NCBI GenBank assembly: GCA_963169855.1
Contig: CAUJCN010000002.1
Span: forward strand, 5,508 to 69,507
Direction of reading: 5' to 3'
DNA: 64,000 nt
From: Patescibacteria group bacterium
GTDB lineage: Bacteria; Patescibacteriota; Dojkabacteria; J137
Position 1 is the stretch's first letter; every line of letters begins with the position of its first letter. A program made the position numbers and the translations under genes. Shown piece by piece: positions 25,579 to 61,834 of this stretch. Under the pieces are notes generated by a model, which worked only from the letters and a program-made list of their open reading frames with translations, made no database searches and had not been told where the DNA came from.

Positions 25579-25579
25579 A

Positions 25580-25985
25580 ATATGTTCATTCTCATAAGCC
25601 GGATTCTGTTTTAAGGACAATTTCTCTATGCCCCGCCAATGGCAGGTTGCTTTATGCAGGGGTTACCAGCGACTTAATATTACTATTTAGTCCGGTGGTC
25701 TCTTACGCCACCATTTCACCATCACCCAACTACGCCAAAGGCTTAGTCGGGCAGTATCTTTCTGTTGCCCTTTTCTCCCTGAGATCACTCCCAGCCTATA
25801 TTCTGATACAAGTGTTCGTCGTATCAGCTTAAAGGTGCATATCTCGTTAACTTGCAGGCTTTTAAAAGTTTCTGTTTGTCGTACGAGACCAAATTAAAGT
25901 CCGGACTTTCCTCCCGACTACGCTAAAGCTTCGTCGGGTAAACCCAACTAGCCTCGCAAATCGAGTAGTCCAACGGAATGAATCG
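25580..25985 (-). ncRNA. rnpB: RNase P RNA, bacterial type A
   Basis: On the minus strand: P4 5' half GGAAAGTCCGGACT (revcomp of about 25897-25910), GGTGAAATGGTGGCGTAAGAGACCACC (cf. GGUGAAAcGGUGcGGUAAGAGcgCACC) and ACAGAATCCGGCTTATGAG (P4 3' half). A P3 hairpin cccgacgaagctttagcgtagtcggg is present. P1 strands GAUUCAUUC/GAAUGAAC define the ends. Confidence 0.85.
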
Positions 25986-27276: not shown

Positions 27277-29667
27277 TTATAGAACTATATTTAGAATTTT
27301 ACCTTTAACGTAAACTATCTTCTTAGGTTCATTAGTAATGTATTTTGAAAGTCTTTCATCGGCTTTAACTAGGTTCATAGCTTCTTCTTCAGAGGCTTCA
27401 GGATTCACTACAACTAGTCCTCTACTCTTTCCATTAAACTGAACTGCTAGATTTACATCTTCTCTCAAGATTTTACTTTCATCGACTATCGGCCATGATT
27501 GTAAGTGTATAGACTCGCTGTGTCCAAAACTACTCCAAAGTTCTTCTGTAATAAATGGTGCGTATGGAGCAAGTAGTTTTAAGAAAATTTCAAACACGGA
27601 TTTTGATAAACTGGTTTCTTTTGCAGCGAAGTTTACAAATTCCATGAACTTAGCAATCGCTGTATTGAAGGCAAGACTTTCAGTATCTTTTTCAATTTTG
27701 CTTATTAGTTTATTAATTTCAGCTTCCTGTTTGGATGATTCGACATTATCCTGAACCTTTGCAGAAAGATCCCAAACTCTTGTTAAGAATCTAAATACTC
27801 CACTTTCTGAACTATCGTTCCATGGTTTTGGTTCTTCCAATGGTCCCATGAACATTTCGTACATTCTTACTGTATCTGCACTATATTTTTCTACTTCGTC
27901 GTTTGGATTAATCACGTTTCCCCATCGTTTGCTCATCTTTCTTCCATCTGGACCGGAAATAATTCCCATATGTCTAAGCTTTGCAAAAGGTTCATCGAAA
28001 GTTAAATATCCTTCGTCGAATAAGAATTTTGTAAAGAATCTAGCATACATTAAGTGAAGAACTGTGTGTTCAGCACCAATCATGTATAGATCTGCAGGAT
28101 TCCAGTAGTTTACATTTTCTTTTGTGAAGATTTCGTTGTCGTTACCGTTATCTGCATATCTTAAGAAATACCAGCTTGAGTCTACAAATGTATCCATTGT
28201 ATCTGGCTCAAAATACCAACCTTTTCCGTACTTTTCTTCAGCAAGTTTCTTAAATGACTCAGAGCCTTTGATTGGAGATTCACCTGTTGGCTTAAAGTCT
28301 ACATCTGTTGGTAATACTAATGGTAAATCCTTCTCGTCCATTGCATGAGGATTTCCTTCTGGATCATAAACAACTGGAATTGGGCATCCCCAGTATCTTT
28401 GTCTAGAAACTAACCAATCTCTTAATCTAAATGTAGTTTTTCTGAATCCAATTCCTTGTTCTTCAACCCAAGATTGCATTTTAGAAGTAGCTTCTTCTGA
28501 TGTTAATCCTGTAAATTCTCCAGAGTTGATTAAAGTCCCGTACTCTGTGAGCCGTTCGTTATCTTTCTTATTCTCTGCGGTAATAACTTCAATATTATTA
28601 ATTCCGTATTTTTCTGCGAACTCGCCGTCTCTTTCGTCGTGTGCTGGTACAGCCATAATTGCACCAGTTCCATAAGTATTTAGAACATAGTCTGCAACAA
28701 ACACTGGTATTTCCTCGTTGTTGAAAGGATTAACTGCTTTCACACCTTTGATTTCAACACCAGTTTTATCTTTCTGTGATTGTCTTTCTAATTCAGTTTT
28801 ATTTCTTGCGTTTTCTATATATGATTCAACTTCTTGAAGATTTGAAATTTGAGGTTTGAGATTTTGAATGATTTTATGTTCAGGTGCAACAACCAAGAAC
28901 GTACAACCAAAGATAGTATCTATTCTGGTAGTAAATATTTCAATTTGAGATTCGGAATTTGAGATCGGAAACTTAACATTTGTTCCCTCGCTTTGGCCAA
29001 TCCAGTGTCTTTGCACTGCTTTTGTACTTTCTGGCCAATCAACTCTATCTAAATCTTTAACTAAGCGTTCGGCATAGTCAGTAATTTTAAAGAACCATTG
29101 GTACATATCTTTCTTTTCTACCAATGTATCGCATCTTTCGCATCTACCATCTATTACTTGTTCTGCAGCTAAGACAGTCTGATCTTTAGGACACCAATTT
29201 ACAGGTGCGTTCTTTTTGTAAGCTAATCCTTTTTTGTACAATTGTAAGAAAATCCATTGAGTCCATTTATAGTAATCTGGTCTGTGTGCTCCTAGCTCTA
29301 AATTCCAGTCAACAGAGATTCCTAGTCTCTTAATCTGCTCTATGAAGTTCTTAACTGCTTTTTCTGTACTTTCTTGAGGGGGTACGCCAGTTTTAATTGC
29401 ATAATTTTCTGCAGGCAGTCCAAAAGAGTCCCAGCCCATAGGAATTAAAACGTTCTTTCCTTTCATTCGATTGTATCGTGCAGCAATATCGTTTGCTACC
29501 ATACCTTCTGCGTGACCAACGTGTAATCCATCTCCACTTGGGTAAGGAAACGAATAAAGTGAGTAGAATTTCTCTTTCCCAGATTCCTTTTTTGTTGTAT
29601 TCAGGTTTGTTTCTTCCCAATTCTTAATCCATTTATTTTCGATGTCTTTTGGCGTGTACCTGTTCAT
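27277..29667 (-). CDS. leuS: Leucyl-tRNA synthetase, canonical, with CP1 editing domain
   Basis: 796 aa with HVGH (HIGH) and KMSKR (KMSKS) motifs. The editing domain is marked by TTRIDTIFGCTFLVVAPEH and GTGAIMAVPAHDERDGEFA. No T-box lies upstream (only a 48-nt IGR after a terminator). Confidence 0.95.
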   Translation of the reverse strand: MNRYTPKDIENKWIKNWEETNLNTTKKESGKEKFYSLYSFPYPSGDGLHVGHAEGMVANDIAARYNRMKGKNVLIPMGWDSFGLPAENYAIKTGVPPQESTEKAVKNFIEQIKRLGISVDWNLELGAHRPDYYKWTQWIFLQLYKKGLAYKKNAPVNWCPKDQTVLAAEQVIDGRCERCDTLVEKKDMYQWFFKITDYAERLVKDLDRVDWPESTKAVQRHWIGQSEGTNVKFPISNSESQIEIFTTRIDTIFGCTFLVVAPEHKIIQNLKPQISNLQEVESYIENARNKTELERQSQKDKTGVEIKGVKAVNPFNNEEIPVFVADYVLNTYGTGAIMAVPAHDERDGEFAEKYGINNIEVITAENKKDNERLTEYGTLINSGEFTGLTSEEATSKMQSWVEEQGIGFRKTTFRLRDWLVSRQRYWGCPIPVVYDPEGNPHAMDEKDLPLVLPTDVDFKPTGESPIKGSESFKKLAEEKYGKGWYFEPDTMDTFVDSSWYFLRYADNGNDNEIFTKENVNYWNPADLYMIGAEHTVLHLMYARFFTKFLFDEGYLTFDEPFAKLRHMGIISGPDGRKMSKRWGNVINPNDEVEKYSADTVRMYEMFMGPLEEPKPWNDSSESGVFRFLTRVWDLSAKVQDNVESSKQEAEINKLISKIEKDTESLAFNTAIAKFMEFVNFAAKETSLSKSVFEIFLKLLAPYAPFITEELWSSFGHSESIHLQSWPIVDESKILREDVNLAVQFNGKSRGLVVVNPEASEEEAMNLVKADERLSKYITNEPKKIVYVKGKILNIVL

Positions 29668-57320: not shown

Positions 57321-57866
57321 TTACCAGTGTGGAACTTGATGAGTAATTTTCTTATTATTCTGAATTGCTTCTTTTACTTTATTATTGACTGACGAATAGT
57401 AAATCACATCTCCATCTTCTGAATATTCTGACCCATCTTCTTCTACATGATAGAAGTTCAAGTTCTTACCTGGAAATACTTGTAATCCGGATTTAATATA
57501 AAACTCAGCATTTTCTGGAACACAAAACCCAACTAGAGTTTTATTATTCTCATCTGCATATTTTGTCATTTCTTGCATCAATACTTTTCCGTAACCCTTT
57601 CTTTGCTCTATTGAAGAAACTGCTTGAATTCCCATTATTTCGACTTCTTCATTTTCAATTTTCAAAGCGATTGGTCTTATTGTTCCAAAAGCTACCAATT
57701 TGTTATCTGCTCGAACCAAAAAGAAAATTCTATCGTGGAAATAGTTATTAGTCTGATGATCCCAAACGTTATCTCGATTAAACAGAATCTTTCTATACTG
57801 ATTTACAACATCAAGATCTGATTGAGCTAAATCGCTTCCTTGTACTGTCTCTATCTTTATGTTCAT
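57321..57866 (-). CDS. GNAT family N-acetyltransferase
   Basis: Motif A QRKGYGKVLM (Q/RxxGxG/A). Confidence 0.72.
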   Translation of the reverse strand: MNIKIETVQGSDLAQSDLDVVNQYRKILFNRDNVWDHQTNNYFHDRIFFLVRADNKLVAFGTIRPIALKIENEEVEIMGIQAVSSIEQRKGYGKVLMQEMTKYADENNKTLVGFCVPENAEFYIKSGLQVFPGKNLNFYHVEEDGSEYSEDGDVIYYSSVNNKVKEAIQNNKKITHQVPHW

Positions 57867-58354
57867 TATTCTCCTCTATACGCTCTCTCAAGCTCCGCCA
57901 AATCTAACTTCCCAGTCATCTTCAACATCGCTGCACTAACTCTATCCGCTTTTACAGGATCTGGATCGCGCATCATTACGTCCAAACTTTCTGGAGCGAT
58001 TTGCCAAGTTAAACCAAATCTATCTGTTAACCAACCGCAAGAAATTACAGTCCCACCTTCAGATAACGCATCCCAAAGCTTATCAATCTCTTCTTGAGTT
58101 TTACATGTTACTAATATAGATGTAGCTTCGTTAAGTTTGTAGTAAGAACCACCGTTCAATGCAGCAAAGTTTTGTCCATTCAGTTCGAAATCAATTGCTG
58201 ATAAATCACCAGCTTTTTTTCCAGACATTTCTGCCACTGATTCTGTCATGTAGGTTTTATTTAGAATTTTTGCATCTTCGAAAAGCGATACGTATAGATT
58301 TACAGCTTCTTCTGCTTGGTTGTCAAACCAAAAGAAAGTTACTAATTTCTTCAT
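57866..58354 (-). CDS. VOC-superfamily protein, PhnB/3-demethylubiquinone-9 3-methyltransferase-domain type
   Basis: N-terminal FFWFDNQAEEAVNLYVSLF is typical of the PF06983 family. Local GC content looks higher than the surroundings (estimated by eye, not computed). Confidence 0.62.
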   Translation of the reverse strand: MKKLVTFFWFDNQAEEAVNLYVSLFEDAKILNKTYMTESVAEMSGKKAGDLSAIDFELNGQNFAALNGGSYYKLNEATSILVTCKTQEEIDKLWDALSEGGTVISCGWLTDRFGLTWQIAPESLDVMMRDPDPVKADRVSAAMLKMTGKLDLAELERAYRGE

Positions 58355-58419
58355 ATTTAAATTGATAATTACTAAGATAGGATTACCTTAAGTTTATCTA
58401 ATCAACTGAATAAACTCAA

Positions 58420-58962
58420 CTAAGAGCCATTTTGCGCGTTCACTTCCTTATTAAATTCTGAAACTAAATTAATTCTAACTTTGCTTACGTCTATTCTCCT
58501 AGGCAATTCTGGCAAGTTATCAGGTAATACGAAATCGTTCGCTACATAAGCCAATGTTAAATGGGGTCTGAATTCTCTAATTTTAAAGTTCGGATCGTCA
58601 TTTAGTACATATTCTTCAATACTACTTAAAAGTTCATGAAGCTTACCATTGCTATCTAAGACTTCAACAATTAAAACTTTGTATAGATTTTCGTAACCAT
58701 CAATGTATGAAAGTTTACCTAGTTCTAGATCTTCAACTGTATTCTGACTTAGAACTTCGATAAGTTTTGCATCTAGTCTGTGATCAACATTTAACCCAAA
58801 GAATACTGTACAGTGAAGTGTTTTGGACATATTACCTCTAATATGTTCAACAACTGGCGAATAGTAAAACTGTTCCTTCGAAATAATGCTATTCAAGAAT
58901 TTATCAAAAGTATCTATTGTTTTCTGCGTAAATCTTAATTCTACAAATGCATGATCGTTCAT
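58420..58962 (-). CDS. LigT-like 2H phosphoesterase-family protein with both H-x-T-x motifs intact
   Basis: LHCTVFFGL and PHLTLAYV are spaced about 85 aa apart; paralog of 15529-16020. Confidence 0.55.
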   Translation of the reverse strand: MNDHAFVELRFTQKTIDTFDKFLNSIISKEQFYYSPVVEHIRGNMSKTLHCTVFFGLNVDHRLDAKLIEVLSQNTVEDLELGKLSYIDGYENLYKVLIVEVLDSNGKLHELLSSIEEYVLNDDPNFKIREFRPHLTLAYVANDFVLPDNLPELPRRIDVSKVRINLVSEFNKEVNAQNGS

Positions 58963-59042: not shown

Positions 59043-59073
59043 AAAAAAGCACTCCGGGTAGAGTGCTCTTTTT
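59043..59073. terminator. Bidirectional rho-independent terminator
   Basis: AAAAAA-gcactc-cgggta-gagtgc-tcTTTTT. Confidence 0.6.
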
Positions 59074-59173: not shown

Positions 59174-59386
59174 TCACTTAGTTTTAGCTAAGTTATTCGA
59201 TTCTAGCTTAGTAAAAAGTTTTGAAACTTTATCAATATTTTTGGGATTGGCGTCTTTGATCTTCAGGTATTCGTCAATAAATATATCTGCTAGAGACTCT
59301 ACAAATGCAATTATATCTTCAACTTCGTCATCAGTATAATTTTCCTTACTAAGAGAGAGCCTCTTCCTCGTTTCTTCAATTTTCAT
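59174..59386 (-). CDS. Small acidic protein (about 70 aa) translationally coupled to the LeuRS paralog
   Basis: The ATG overlaps the LeuRS-like stop (ATGAAAATTGA). The longer 59467 start would overlap the upstream gene by 92 nt in another frame. Confidence 0.35.
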   Translation of the reverse strand: MKIEETRKRLSLSKENYTDDEVEDIIAFVESLADIFIDEYLKIKDANPKNIDKVSKLFTKLESNNLAKTK

Positions 59387-61067
59387 ATTTTTTCGGGAAA
59401 TTGACCTGATGAACTGAGAAGTCGTTCCCCATCTGACTCCACATCTCTTCTGTAATAAATGGGACAAATGGCGCTAACAATTTTGTAAAGACTTCCCAAA
59501 CTTCTTTGCTTATATTCTTTTTCTCTTTATATCTATTATTAACGAAAACCATTAATTTACTTAAAGCAACATTATATTTCATTTGTTTAATATTTTGCTC
59601 TGTTTCTTCTATCAATTTATTTATCTCATTCTTTATATCTTCAATCGTCAATGTCTCGTTATAAGATTTAGAAATGACTCTTTCTTGGAACAATCTCCAA
59701 AATCGATCTCGGAAACGCTTTACACCGGAAATATTTTCTTCACTCCATTTAGAAATATCTCCATACGGCGTTATAAATTGAACTGACAACCTCAATAAGT
59801 CACCTCCGTACTTTTCTAACAACTCATTTGTTTCTGGTGCATTTCCCAACCTTTTTGAAAACTTAACTCCAGATTTATCTACTAATAATCCCACAGGTGT
59901 ATATTTGGGGAAAGGTTCATCAAATGGAATCAACCCTAAATCATAGAAAACTTTGGTAATAAATCTTGCATAAACTAAATGTGCTGTTAAGTGTTCAATC
60001 GTACCTGCATAATGATCTACATTCTGCCAATATTCTAACGAATCTTGCGATGCAAATTTGTTTTGGTTATGTGGGTCAGTAAATCTAAATTGATACCACG
60101 AAGAACTTACAAAAGTATCCATTGTATCTGTTTCCCGCTTCGCTTTCCCACCACAAGAAGGACAGGTTGTATTTACAAAATCAGCATTTGACTCCAAAGG
60201 AGCTGTACCATCTGTGAAGTATTGGACTTCGTATGGTAATTCAACAGGTAATTTATCTTCCGAAATCGGTTGTTCGCCACATTTATCACAATATACTATT
60301 GGGATTGGTGTTCCCCAATAACGTTGTCTTGATATACACCAATCATGAACGTGCGGAATGAATTGACCTTCTTTGTTTCTTCTTCCAATCCATGTTTTAT
60401 GTGTATTTAAGTGCTTCTCTTCCCAATCTAATTTTTCGCAGTCTTCATACATTCGTTCAGCATAATCTGATACTTTAAAGAACCATTGCTCTAATTCTTT
60501 TTCCTCCACTTTTGACCCACAACGTTCACACTCATCTTCATTAATTACCTGTTCTTTTGATAATACGGTTTTATCCTCTGGACACCATTTAACTGAGGAT
60601 TTCTTTTTGTAAGCCAACCCATGCTTGTACAATTGCAAAAATAACCATTGAGTCCATCTGTAATATTCTGGTTCAGAGGTATTTATTTCGGTATTCCACG
60701 CATGGCTCAAACCTGCAGATTGATATTGATGAACAAAGTTTGATTTATTCTCATCCGTAATATCTCTAGGGTGTCTACCTGATTTCATTGCAAAGTTTTC
60801 TGCTGGCAATCCAAATGTATCCCATCCAGTTGGATATAAGACATTAAACCCTTTCGTCCTCTTATACCGTACTTGAATATCTATCCCTCCAAAACTTTTA
60901 TAATGTCCTATCGTGACTCCTTTACCAGATGGATAGACAAAAGTGTCTAAAGCATAAAATTTAGGCTTAGTAGAGACTATTTCTGTATCGTAGATCTTTT
61001 CCTTAAACCACTTGTTTTTCCATTTTTCCTCGACTGACTTGTGGTCGTATGCGTTGTTTTCTTCCAT
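59376..61067 (-). CDS. Leucyl-tRNA synthetase paralog that precisely lacks the CP1 editing domain and the C-terminal domain; variant signature motifs TIGH and KFSKR
   Basis: 563 aa that aligns to the canonical LeuRS across the catalytic core (YPSGKGVTIGH...PTGWDTFGLPAEN...WCPEDKTVLSKEQV...CERCGSKVE). HTKTWIGRRNKEGQFIPHVHDWCISRQRYWG joins directly where the canonical copy carries about 190 aa of CP1. It ends at the point equivalent to SIHLQSWP. Extra CxxC pairs are present (CDKCGEQP, CPSCGG). Confidence 0.85.
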   Translation of the reverse strand: MEENNAYDHKSVEEKWKNKWFKEKIYDTEIVSTKPKFYALDTFVYPSGKGVTIGHYKSFGGIDIQVRYKRTKGFNVLYPTGWDTFGLPAENFAMKSGRHPRDITDENKSNFVHQYQSAGLSHAWNTEINTSEPEYYRWTQWLFLQLYKHGLAYKKKSSVKWCPEDKTVLSKEQVINEDECERCGSKVEEKELEQWFFKVSDYAERMYEDCEKLDWEEKHLNTHKTWIGRRNKEGQFIPHVHDWCISRQRYWGTPIPIVYCDKCGEQPISEDKLPVELPYEVQYFTDGTAPLESNADFVNTTCPSCGGKAKRETDTMDTFVSSSWYQFRFTDPHNQNKFASQDSLEYWQNVDHYAGTIEHLTAHLVYARFITKVFYDLGLIPFDEPFPKYTPVGLLVDKSGVKFSKRLGNAPETNELLEKYGGDLLRLSVQFITPYGDISKWSEENISGVKRFRDRFWRLFQERVISKSYNETLTIEDIKNEINKLIEETEQNIKQMKYNVALSKLMVFVNNRYKEKKNISKEVWEVFTKLLAPFVPFITEEMWSQMGNDFSVHQVNFPKKYEN

Positions 61068-61084
61068 AATTCTATTTATATAAT

Positions 61085-61335
61085 AAATAAAAAATCCCTC
61101 GTTGTCAGATACAAAAAGTAACTAACAACGAGGGACGTTATATCTATGATTATGGGTAACGCGGTACCACCCTCATTTATAAATAGATTGCTCTATCTAT
61201 ACACTTTGTGCCACTCTTATCTTTACAAAGAGACATGGCTTTGGTTTACGATTACGGGACCTTCCGTCTGGCTCTACTCTCCCAAATATTTTGAGATTTC
61301 TTCCAGCCCCATCGCCGGCTAGGAATCCATTTATT
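61085..61335 (-). promoter_or_regulatory. T-box riboswitch leader (probable leucine specifier) controlling the LeuRS paralog
   Basis: Minus strand carries AGGGTGGTACCGCG (plus 61160-61173), terminator CCCTCGTTGT...ACAACGAGGG plus ATTTTTT (plus 61089-61134) immediately 5' of the ATG, and a candidate specifier AAUCUCAAAA (CUC = Leu; plus 61293-61295). Confidence 0.75.
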
Positions 61336-61588
61336 CGATATATTCAATGGCGCTCCGGGTCATCGGGTTTATAAATTGTAAATTAATTATATCATTAAAC
61401 TATACTTTTGTTCAATTTGAAGTAGTACGAAGGAATTACACTTTTATGCAAATTTATTTTGTTAGATTAGAAAAAGTTGAGCATACTTATCGGCTGAATG
61501 ATTACATATAGGAACAAGATAAAGAGGTATGTAGATTTGAAGTTGAAAACTTTTATGATATCTATATCGTGATATATATTACATAAAA

Positions 61589-61660
61589 TGACCTCACGGA
61601 GAATCGAACTCCGATTGACAGATTGAAAATCTGTTGTCCTAACCGTTAGACGATGAGGCC
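61589..61660 (-). tRNA. tRNA-Glu (anticodon UUC)
   Basis: Minus strand GGCCTCATCGTCTAACGGTTAGGACAACAGATTTTCAATCTGTCAATCGGAGTTCGATTCTCCGTGAGGTCA folds as a cloverleaf with anticodon loop TTTTCAA and T-loop TTCGATT. CCA is not encoded. Confidence 0.82.
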
Positions 61661-61834
61661 ACAAGCCAGCAAAGCTGGAAATTCAAAATTCTAAGATTTA
61701 AAATTCGAAAATGAAAATCTTAAAAAATTCTACAAACCTTAGCTGAAAAATCAAAAGATTAATGATACAAGGATCAAAAACCATAATGAATCAGCAAAAA
61801 TTGCTCGTAATTATATAATTTTAGCCTATAATAT

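Follow-up and report, generated by a model that had tools for sequence, protein, structure and literature searches.

Two leucyl-tRNA synthetase genes, one without an editing domain

We describe a second, shortened leucyl-tRNA synthetase (LeuRS) gene, preceded by a T-box leader, in a 64-kb stretch of contig CAUJCN010000002.1 from a Patescibacteria group bacterium of the Dojkabacteria lineage (assembly GCA_963169855.1). This whole stretch is called the window below. It contains two leuS genes, both on the minus strand, and a small open reading frame (ORF) overlaps the end of the short one:

27277-29667 (-): canonical housekeeping LeuRS, 796 aa, with HVGH and KMSKR motifs, a full CP1 editing domain (TTRxDT and AHDxRD motifs) and a C-terminal domain
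59376-61067 (-): short LeuRS, 563 aa, with the catalytic core and an anticodon-binding-type helical domain but no CP1, leucine-specific domain or C-terminal domain
59174-59386 (-): 70-aa ORF overlapping the short leuS (ATGAAAATTGA overlap)

The 563-aa product is a bacterial-type LeuRS. It scored 568.5 bits against the NCBIfam model TIGR00396 (leuS_bact), above the equivalog cutoff of 548.4, while the runner-up, ValRS, reached only 220 bits, showing that the protein is a LeuRS and not a fragment of MetRS or ValRS. The canonical protein matched TIGR00396 from end to end with 952.8 bits and contains the PF13603 editing domain (1.2e-61), for which a Pfam search gave no match in the short protein. 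BLASTP aligned the two enzymes in two separate segments, residues 5-229 of the short protein with 2-225 of the canonical one at 49% identity, and residues 239-558 with 414-726 at 39% identity. Together with the alignment of the family described below, this places about 9-10 residues where the canonical enzyme has its CP1 of ~190 residues. The short protein ends ~5 residues past the equivalent of canonical residue 726, where the C-terminal domain would begin. Its signature motifs are TIGH for HIGH and KFSKR for KMSKS; the glycine, the last histidine and the S-K pair are kept, and the first histidine and the methionine are changed.

An earlier reading, made from the sequence alone, had proposed a LeuRS rather than another class I fragment, a clean excision of CP1, a missing C-terminal domain and the TIGH and KFSKR motifs, and these proposals are all borne out. 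It had also described the canonical leuS as leaderless. We agree, as the next ORF upstream is only 81 nt away and an Rfam search of the window, E-value mode included, detected no T-box or other RNA family upstream of that gene. Its mention of additional CxxC pairs in the short protein is correct as to their presence but not as to their being additional. The CDKC...CPSC pairs also occur in other canonical LeuRSs and were lost from the canonical copy in the window, so that they read as ancestral LeuRS features and not as a novelty of the short protein. GC content is 35.1% in the short leuS, 36.2% in the canonical leuS and 34.7% in the window as a whole. The composition holds no signal of horizontal acquisition of the short gene, an origin that we rejected.

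Several alignment columns are invariant between the family of the short LeuRS and canonical LeuRSs, namely Y45, D83, E358, H359, H363, S404 and K405. We take these columns to be leucine or adenylate contacts, as in the T. thermophilus and E. coli LeuRS structures, the leucine-pocket residues presumably being Y43, D80, H541 and H545 in T. thermophilus numbering. An AlphaFold (AF2) model built from the family alignment was confident, with a pLDDT of 85.6 and a pTM of 0.85. Its best structural neighbor was the LeuRS of Mycoplasma mobile (3ziu; TM scores 0.89/0.87), which was also the best sequence match (1.3e-123, in one continuous stretch), followed by full-length LeuRSs that include the AgnB2 enzyme (5ah5).

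The M. mobile LeuRS resembles the short LeuRS in having a 9-residue linker in place of CP1 (RRNKEGQFI in the window protein, KEEIDGKIT in M. mobile) at the same junction (WIGRRNKEGQFIPHVHDW versus WIGKEEIDGKITYKLQDW). The leucine-specific domain, too, is replaced in both by four residues (DKSG in the window protein, GKDG in M. mobile). Nevertheless, the two proteins are only ~37% identical, and the M. mobile enzyme keeps HVGH, KMSKS and the C-terminal domain, whereas in the window protein the motifs are TIGH and KFSKR and the domain is absent. The M. mobile enzyme is presumably that organism's only LeuRS; in contrast, the short LeuRS is a second copy beside a canonical leuS and lies under a T-box. 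The M. mobile design is active on tRNA-Leu, with a kcat of 1.8 s-1, and mischarges Ile (PMC3643597). The short LeuRS is most likely active as well, because it shares this design and its pocket columns are invariant.

The 70-aa ORF starts 8 nt before the leuS stop codon, giving an 11-nt overlap that points to translational coupling with the short leuS, and its product is mildly acidic (isoelectric point 5.1); both features had been recognized in the sequence-only reading. In the contig of a 91%-identical homologue (L004), the short leuS is followed by a related 82-aa ORF. The N-terminal halves of the two small proteins are alike, and their ratio of nonsynonymous to synonymous substitution rates (dN/dS) is ~0.2, with dS saturated. 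The 70-aa ORF has no Pfam or NCBIfam match, and no counterpart follows the 70%-identical homologue in L091. It probably encodes a genuine small protein that evolves rapidly. We rejected the idea that it represents a detached C-terminal domain, as it is unlike the C-terminal domains of the family, matches no known family and is absent after the L091 homologue, which itself lacks the C-terminal domain. Recoding of UGA as Gly at the leuS stop was likewise discarded, since readthrough would add just 9 codons before a UAG.

The leader of the short leuS

The elements upstream of the short leuS, and the hairpin that follows the 70-aa ORF, are as follows:

61089-61372 (-): atypical T-box leader with a kink-turn (K-turn), a short Stem I, Stem II, a Stem IIA/B region, Stem III, the T-box sequence and a terminator
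61320-61322 (-): CUA (Leu), the putative specifier of the Stem I loop, with a purine and then the CCGG stem after it
61163-61172 (-): T-box sequence GGGUGGUACC, whose UGGU bulge would pair with the 3'-ACCA end of a tRNA
61089-61134 (-): intrinsic terminator CCCUCGUUGUUAG...CUGACAACGAGGG followed by U6, competitor of the antiterminator
61386-61415 (-): promoter-like TTGAAC-18 nt-TATAAT with a TG extension (TGnTATAAT), 14 nt upstream of the leader, a pattern match from a consensus scan
59043-59067 (-): hairpin AGCACUC-UACCCG-GAGUGCU with a U-run, read from the sequence (a scan met the same hairpin on the plus strand), probably the end of the operon

Judged by its elements, the leader appears to be a real but atypical T-box. 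Positions 61128-61372 (-) matched the Rfam T-box model RF00230 with 43.9 bits (E = 3.3e-8 in a local search and 2e-6 over the whole window). At the curated Rfam threshold, a gathering score of 93, no T-box was found upstream of the short leuS, and E-value mode was needed to detect it. Related leaders scored 47.7 bits (L004) and 44.1 bits (L001). The low score is explained by the truncation of Stem I, the distal part of which comprises 35 nt for ~75 model positions; in the leader alignment, only a stem of 4-5 bp with a loop of 13-15 nt stands above the specifier loop.

The remaining elements could be followed in order. Stem I of the window leader consists of a GAUGA...GA K-turn, a CCGG/CCGG stem, a specifier loop with AUUC-CUA-G on its 3' side and the short upper hairpin. 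It is followed, from 5' to 3', by Stem II with an AGUAGA sequence, an ACGGAAG..CCGU Stem IIA/B element, Stem III and GGGUGGUACCGCG. The terminator is a 15-bp hairpin with six U residues that ends 21 nt before the ATG. It uses the CCCUC segment that also belongs to the antiterminator region, its helix shows compensatory changes among related leaders, and it is present in both the minimum free energy and the centroid folds. The leader is more stably folded than shuffled sequences (z = -3.67). The leucine T-box with a terminator that had been proposed from the sequence is therefore supported by its elements and by a Leu specifier kept in 13 related loci. Its expected match to RF00230 was obtained in E-value mode but falls short of the gathering score, and the start of the leader had to be moved from 61335 to 61372.

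Truncated Stem I elements have a precedent in the actinobacterial ileS T-boxes of M. tuberculosis and N. farcinica, which, like the window leader, combine a short Stem I devoid of the elbow-binding platform with Stem II (S-turn) and Stem IIA/B (PMC7583486). Those T-boxes are described as translational (PMC7583486) and respond to Ile, whereas the leaders of the short leuS family have a Leu specifier and, in 12 of 13 loci, a transcription terminator with a U-run.

Two further observations concern this region. The apical loop of Stem I (window 61326-61346 (-), alignment columns 26-46) is conserved in 8 of 10 leaders, reading GAAUAnCCAAUAA in most of them and GAAUAUAUCGAAUAA in the window clade, which hints at a tertiary or tRNA contact that stands in for the distal platform. 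Both in the window (61588-61661 (-)) and in the 91%-identical relative (L004 5410-5481), the leader is preceded, at a distance of ~215 nt, by a gene for tRNA-Glu(UUC), and it is conceivable that transcription from that gene reads into the leader.

A family of CP1-less synthetases with leucine T-box leaders

Homologues of the short LeuRS were searched for in 5.8 billion proteins and, with a profile, in 1.84 billion representatives, and loci were gathered by exact-protein look-up and with a family-specific DNA pattern, the metagenome scan pattern being E-H-x-T-A-H-L-[VIM]-Y-x-R-F. About 35 CP1-less relatives were found, with 48-91% identity, all of them metagenomic. Below them came ordinary LeuRSs of ~40-45% identity, whose alignment with the short protein was split into two segments. 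In a neighbor-joining (NJ) tree, from which the M. mobile LeuRS was left out, the CP1-less family formed a single clade. Most relatives are 614-656 aa long and have the C-terminal domain, which is missing from the window protein, P0001 (91% identity), P0002 (70%) and P0035. It is also missing from P0013 (553 aa), whose 2-kb contig may be cut.

A T-box leader precedes the gene in all 13 distinct family loci that have upstream DNA. The specifier triplet is CUC in 11 of them and CUA in the other two (the window and L004), and it forms CUA-G or CUC-G/A directly before the stem in all 13, while the neighboring loop bases vary. Across 10 aligned leaders, the T-box sequence is invariant, and 21 of 55 predicted pairs show compensatory changes; among them are pairs at the base of Stem I (C-G to U-A) and in Stem III, and others in the antiterminator and terminator helices. 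Except at the P0035 locus, the leader closes with a hairpin and a U-run. The presence of a leader with a Leu specifier at all 13 loci, together with the compensatory changes, shows that the leucine T-box is a conserved property of the family and not a chance likeness.

Two loci differ in detail. At the P0035 locus (L112 2520-2981, L113), Stem I is longer, the specifier is CUC and only 3 nt separate the last hairpin, which has no U-run here, from the AUG, so that control there may be translational. At the P0007 locus (L114 6200-6800), the 656-aa product as called begins within the T-box leader of its gene; translation probably starts further downstream, at MEQEEIPQYDH, making the N-terminal extension an annotation artefact.

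These data bear on the most skeptical view of the locus, i.e., that the short gene is a duplicate in decay or a product of faulty assembly, and that its leader resembles a T-box by chance. The Rfam score below threshold and the two missing domains would fit such a view. However, comparison of the short leuS with its 91%-identical relative (L004) gave a dN of 0.040, a dS of 0.69 and a dN/dS of 0.058 over 563 codons, showing that the gene is under strong purifying selection. Even at identities as low as 48%, the reading frames of the ~35 homologues are unbroken. The leader, too, is conserved and shows compensatory changes, and the exact protein is recorded on 3 contigs, from NCBI and Logan assemblies, one of which is 817,811 bp long. 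This view has almost no probability left, and we consider it ruled out by the selection and conservation data. The degenerate pseudogene that the sequence-only reading had envisaged as its own refutation is thereby dismissed.

The signature motifs vary within the family. For HIGH, the window clade has TIGH, most members carry HIGY, HFGY or HVGY, two carry HVGH, and NVGY and TVGA occur once each; the KMSKS motif is K[F/Y]SKR. Few differences are fixed between the family and canonical LeuRSs (V51/L, H223/Q, A362/L, F403/M, A410/V and S428/Y), and several of these adjoin the two signature motifs.

The degeneration of HIGH in nearly all members and the loss of the C-terminal domain from the window clade and P0035 could mean that the short LeuRS is a pseudo-synthetase, which does not charge tRNA but binds tRNA-Leu or makes leucyl adenylate (Leu-AMP) for other ends, such as signaling, the sequestering of tRNA that is uncharged, or a transfer of aminoacyl groups that is not part of translation. 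Models for such a protein are Sulfolobaceae LeuRS-I, which forms the adenylate and binds tRNA-Leu with no aminoacylation (PMC9437257), and haloarchaeal LeuRS2; removal of the C-terminal domain kills charging by the E. coli and T. thermophilus enzymes (PMC3561953). Like the short LeuRS, LeuRS-I and LeuRS2 are extra LeuRSs with a disrupted editing domain, a divergent C terminus and an unclear role, but they are of archaeal type and have no riboswitch, and LeuRS-I keeps a disrupted CP1 instead of showing a clean excision. We regard a pseudo-synthetase as unlikely. The S-K-R of the KMSKS loop and the assigned leucine-pocket columns are invariant, and most family members retain the C-terminal domain. 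Variants of the TIGH kind occur in active class I enzymes, e.g., TIGN in TrpRS, and T-box control is a poor fit for a protein that does not charge tRNA, as genes under T-box control are ones that replenish charged tRNA. Finally, the same architecture is active in M. mobile (PMC3643597).

CP1 appears, from the sequences collected, to have been lost repeatedly across bacteria. In the profile search of 1.84 billion representatives, the core family contributed one representative (P0008, 1146 bits). A large score gap separated it from LeuRSs of 785-1344 aa, many of which have extra inserted domains. Single-stretch LeuRSs of 610-710 aa (P0255, P0329, P0359, P0360, P0370 and P0382) also have a short linker in place of CP1, with HxGH and KMSKS mostly kept. 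A generic LeuRS-motif scan of a genome collection returned almost solely canonical LeuRSs among the matches listed, together with two cyanobacterial CP1-less paralogues from a Coleofasciculaceae metagenome-assembled genome and Calothrix anomala FACHB-343 (L005 4887-6902 and L006 5001-6866, respectively). These have HVGN for HxGH, and KMSKS. We considered them as members of the same family and rejected this, as they form a separate NJ clade and have no T-box. The L005 gene sits between a Ser/Thr kinase gene and ilvD.

The searches also brought up full-length LeuRSs. The metagenome scan with the DNA pattern returned 26 loci, about half of which are canonical LeuRSs with the same motif. A clade of CP1-bearing enzymes (L092, L095, L098, L100 and L106) shares E-H-x-T-A-H-L, a motif otherwise typical of the CP1-less proteins, where canonical LeuRSs have EHAVLHL, but it is not the NJ sister of the CP1-less family. 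P0038, a 961-aa LeuRS, has an internal tandem duplication of ~150 residues across the KMSKS region that is probably an assembly artefact. Among named organisms, Candidatus Dojkabacteria have the closest relatives of the canonical window LeuRS, at 56-64% identity. Relatives of this type (P0125, P0134, P0159, P0191 and P0228) are 920-1342 aa long, and precomputed Pfam matches place GNAT acetyltransferase, NUDIX and alpha/beta-hydrolase domains in them, apparently inserted in the synthetase. The window further encodes an RNase P RNA (25579-25949 (-)) that scored 100.2 against an Rfam gathering score of 100; with 88 inserted nt and reduced peripheral elements, it suggests a divergent lineage. Taken with the Dojkabacteria relatives and the contig of 817,811 bp, the borderline score points to a bacterium of the candidate phyla radiation.

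A possible inducible, editing-free LeuRS

We propose that the short LeuRS is an alternative, editing-free second LeuRS that is induced when tRNA-Leu is uncharged, a reading to which we assign a probability of roughly 0.6. The operon would consist of the promoter, the T-box leader, the short leuS, the 70-aa ORF and the terminator. With charged tRNA-Leu (anticodon UAG, read by the specifier CUA), the leader terminator would form and transcription would stop before the short leuS. When leucine is scarce, or when the housekeeping LeuRS is inhibited or insufficient, uncharged tRNA-Leu would pair through its anticodon with the specifier and through its free 3'-NCCA end with the UGGU bulge. Binding of the tRNA would allow the antiterminator to form and the operon to be transcribed. 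The product would be a minimal LeuRS of the M. mobile design, in which formation of Leu-AMP and charging of tRNA-Leu are most likely kept and proofreading is absent. The cell would thus have two LeuRSs, one constitutive and proofreading, the other inducible, free of editing and remodeled in its ATP-site signature motifs.

Several observations weigh against this proposal. The window T-box, at 43.9 bits, is far under the gathering score, and its leader lacks the distal platform of Stem I that stacks on the tRNA elbow, a truncation described for translational T-boxes of actinobacteria (review PMC7583486). The window protein lacks the C-terminal domain, without which E. coli and T. thermophilus LeuRS no longer aminoacylate tRNA (PMC3561953). 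Full HxGH is found only in P0020 and P0023, and P0035 (TVGA) and P0026 (NVGY) have neither histidine. Lastly, co-occurrence of the short gene with a canonical leuS is shown in the window genome only.

The nearest regulatory parallels are the T-box-controlled second synthetases of Firmicutes, i.e., thrZ and tyrZ of B. subtilis and ileS2 of the B. cereus group. In these systems, as we propose for the short leuS, a housekeeping synthetase is accompanied by a paralogue that is transcribed only on uncharged cognate tRNA. The Firmicutes paralogues are full-length, with editing domains where applicable, whereas the short LeuRS has neither a proofreading nor a C-terminal domain; here, moreover, the host belongs to the candidate phyla radiation and Stem I of the T-box is truncated.

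A narrower version of the induced-LeuRS reading, which we hold to be possible though doubtful, makes the short LeuRS an antibiotic-resistance isoform, insensitive to a natural LeuRS inhibitor. The inhibitor would be an adenylate mimic acting at the synthetic site or a tRNA trap acting at the editing site, and the T-box would fire when the housekeeping enzyme is blocked. Consistent with this, a canonical copy coexists with the short LeuRS in the window, LeuRS inhibition would trigger a T-box, and a CP1-less enzyme offers no editing site as a target. The fixed differences gather at the ATP-site signatures (V51/L, the variable HIGH, F403/M in KMSKS and A410/V), and AgnB2, the self-immunity LeuRS of the agrocin 84 producer, is among the structural neighbors of the model. 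AgnB2 is presumably encoded on the agrocin 84 plasmid. IleRS2, another second-copy class I synthetase, owes its antibiotic hyper-resistance to an altered HIGH motif, which gives up to 10^3-fold higher mupirocin resistance (PMC10485003). Like the short LeuRS, IleRS2 and AgnB2 stand beside a sensitive copy, and HIGH is altered in IleRS2; unlike it, both keep CP1, and neither an inhibitor nor a gene cluster has been linked to the family of the short LeuRS.

Other data argue against resistance. No biosynthetic cluster, mobile element or conserved neighbor was found at any examined locus, the GC content of the short leuS is native, and HIGH varies among family members, with no single resistant form fixed. 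We know of no natural LeuRS inhibitor that acts at the editing site. The neighbors include GNAT, PhnB-like, 2H-phosphoesterase-like, RsmE and DsbA-like proteins and differ at every examined locus. In the window, the genes downstream of the operon (57321-58962 (-)) encode a 2H-phosphoesterase/2'-5' RNA-ligase-like ORF with two HxT motifs and a weak Pfam match, a protein with the PhnB/3-demethylubiquinone-methyltransferase fold and a GNAT acetyltransferase; no link of these three genes to leuS was found. The sequence-only reading had invoked either self-immunity or a stress-inducible, error-prone synthetase. Self-immunity of a producer is not supported, given the varied neighborhoods with no cluster, and the sequence does not settle between resistance and an error-prone enzyme.

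For an inducible, editing-free LeuRS, we consider resistance to a LeuRS inhibitor and a backup under leucine starvation about equally likely as the selective benefit, and deliberate mistranslation less likely. There is a slim chance, taking both forms together, that the short LeuRS serves as a low-fidelity enzyme that relaxes the fidelity of Leu codons in a starving minimal-genome symbiont, or as a non-charging protein that acts with the 70-aa partner. The latter form would apply to the clade that lacks the C-terminal domain, whose members may act on uncharged tRNA-Leu or Leu-AMP.

Taken singly, the ingredients have precedents, namely LeuRSs that lack CP1, second synthetases under T-box control and T-boxes in which Stem I is truncated. 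The searchable literature gave no description of their combination, of the family or of such a system in this host group, and no paper on CP1-less LeuRS paralogues that describes the short-LeuRS family. Text searches for T-boxes in Patescibacteria or the candidate phyla radiation turned up no publication. The window leader places predicted T-box regulation on record in the candidate phyla radiation and makes it possible to ask how a T-box with a truncated Stem I drives transcription termination.

Proofreading by LeuRS is usually treated as indispensable, and to our knowledge M. mobile is the sole studied bacterial exception, read as parasite decay. Here, an organism with a genome of ~0.8 Mb bears the cost of a proofreading LeuRS and, in addition, of a putatively regulated, editing-free one, which is conserved with its leader across a whole lineage. 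This makes it testable whether loss of editing is adaptive under starvation or inhibitor stress, and how much weight the HIGH motif and the C-terminal domain carry once CP1 is gone. Carter's work on urzymes reportedly proposes that, for their part in catalysis, class I signature motifs need to be coupled to CP1. As a corollary of the less likely, low-fidelity or non-charging reading, the continued evolution of HIGH after loss of CP1, together with the HVGN of the independently CP1-less cyanobacterial paralogues, would be evidence from nature for such a dependence.

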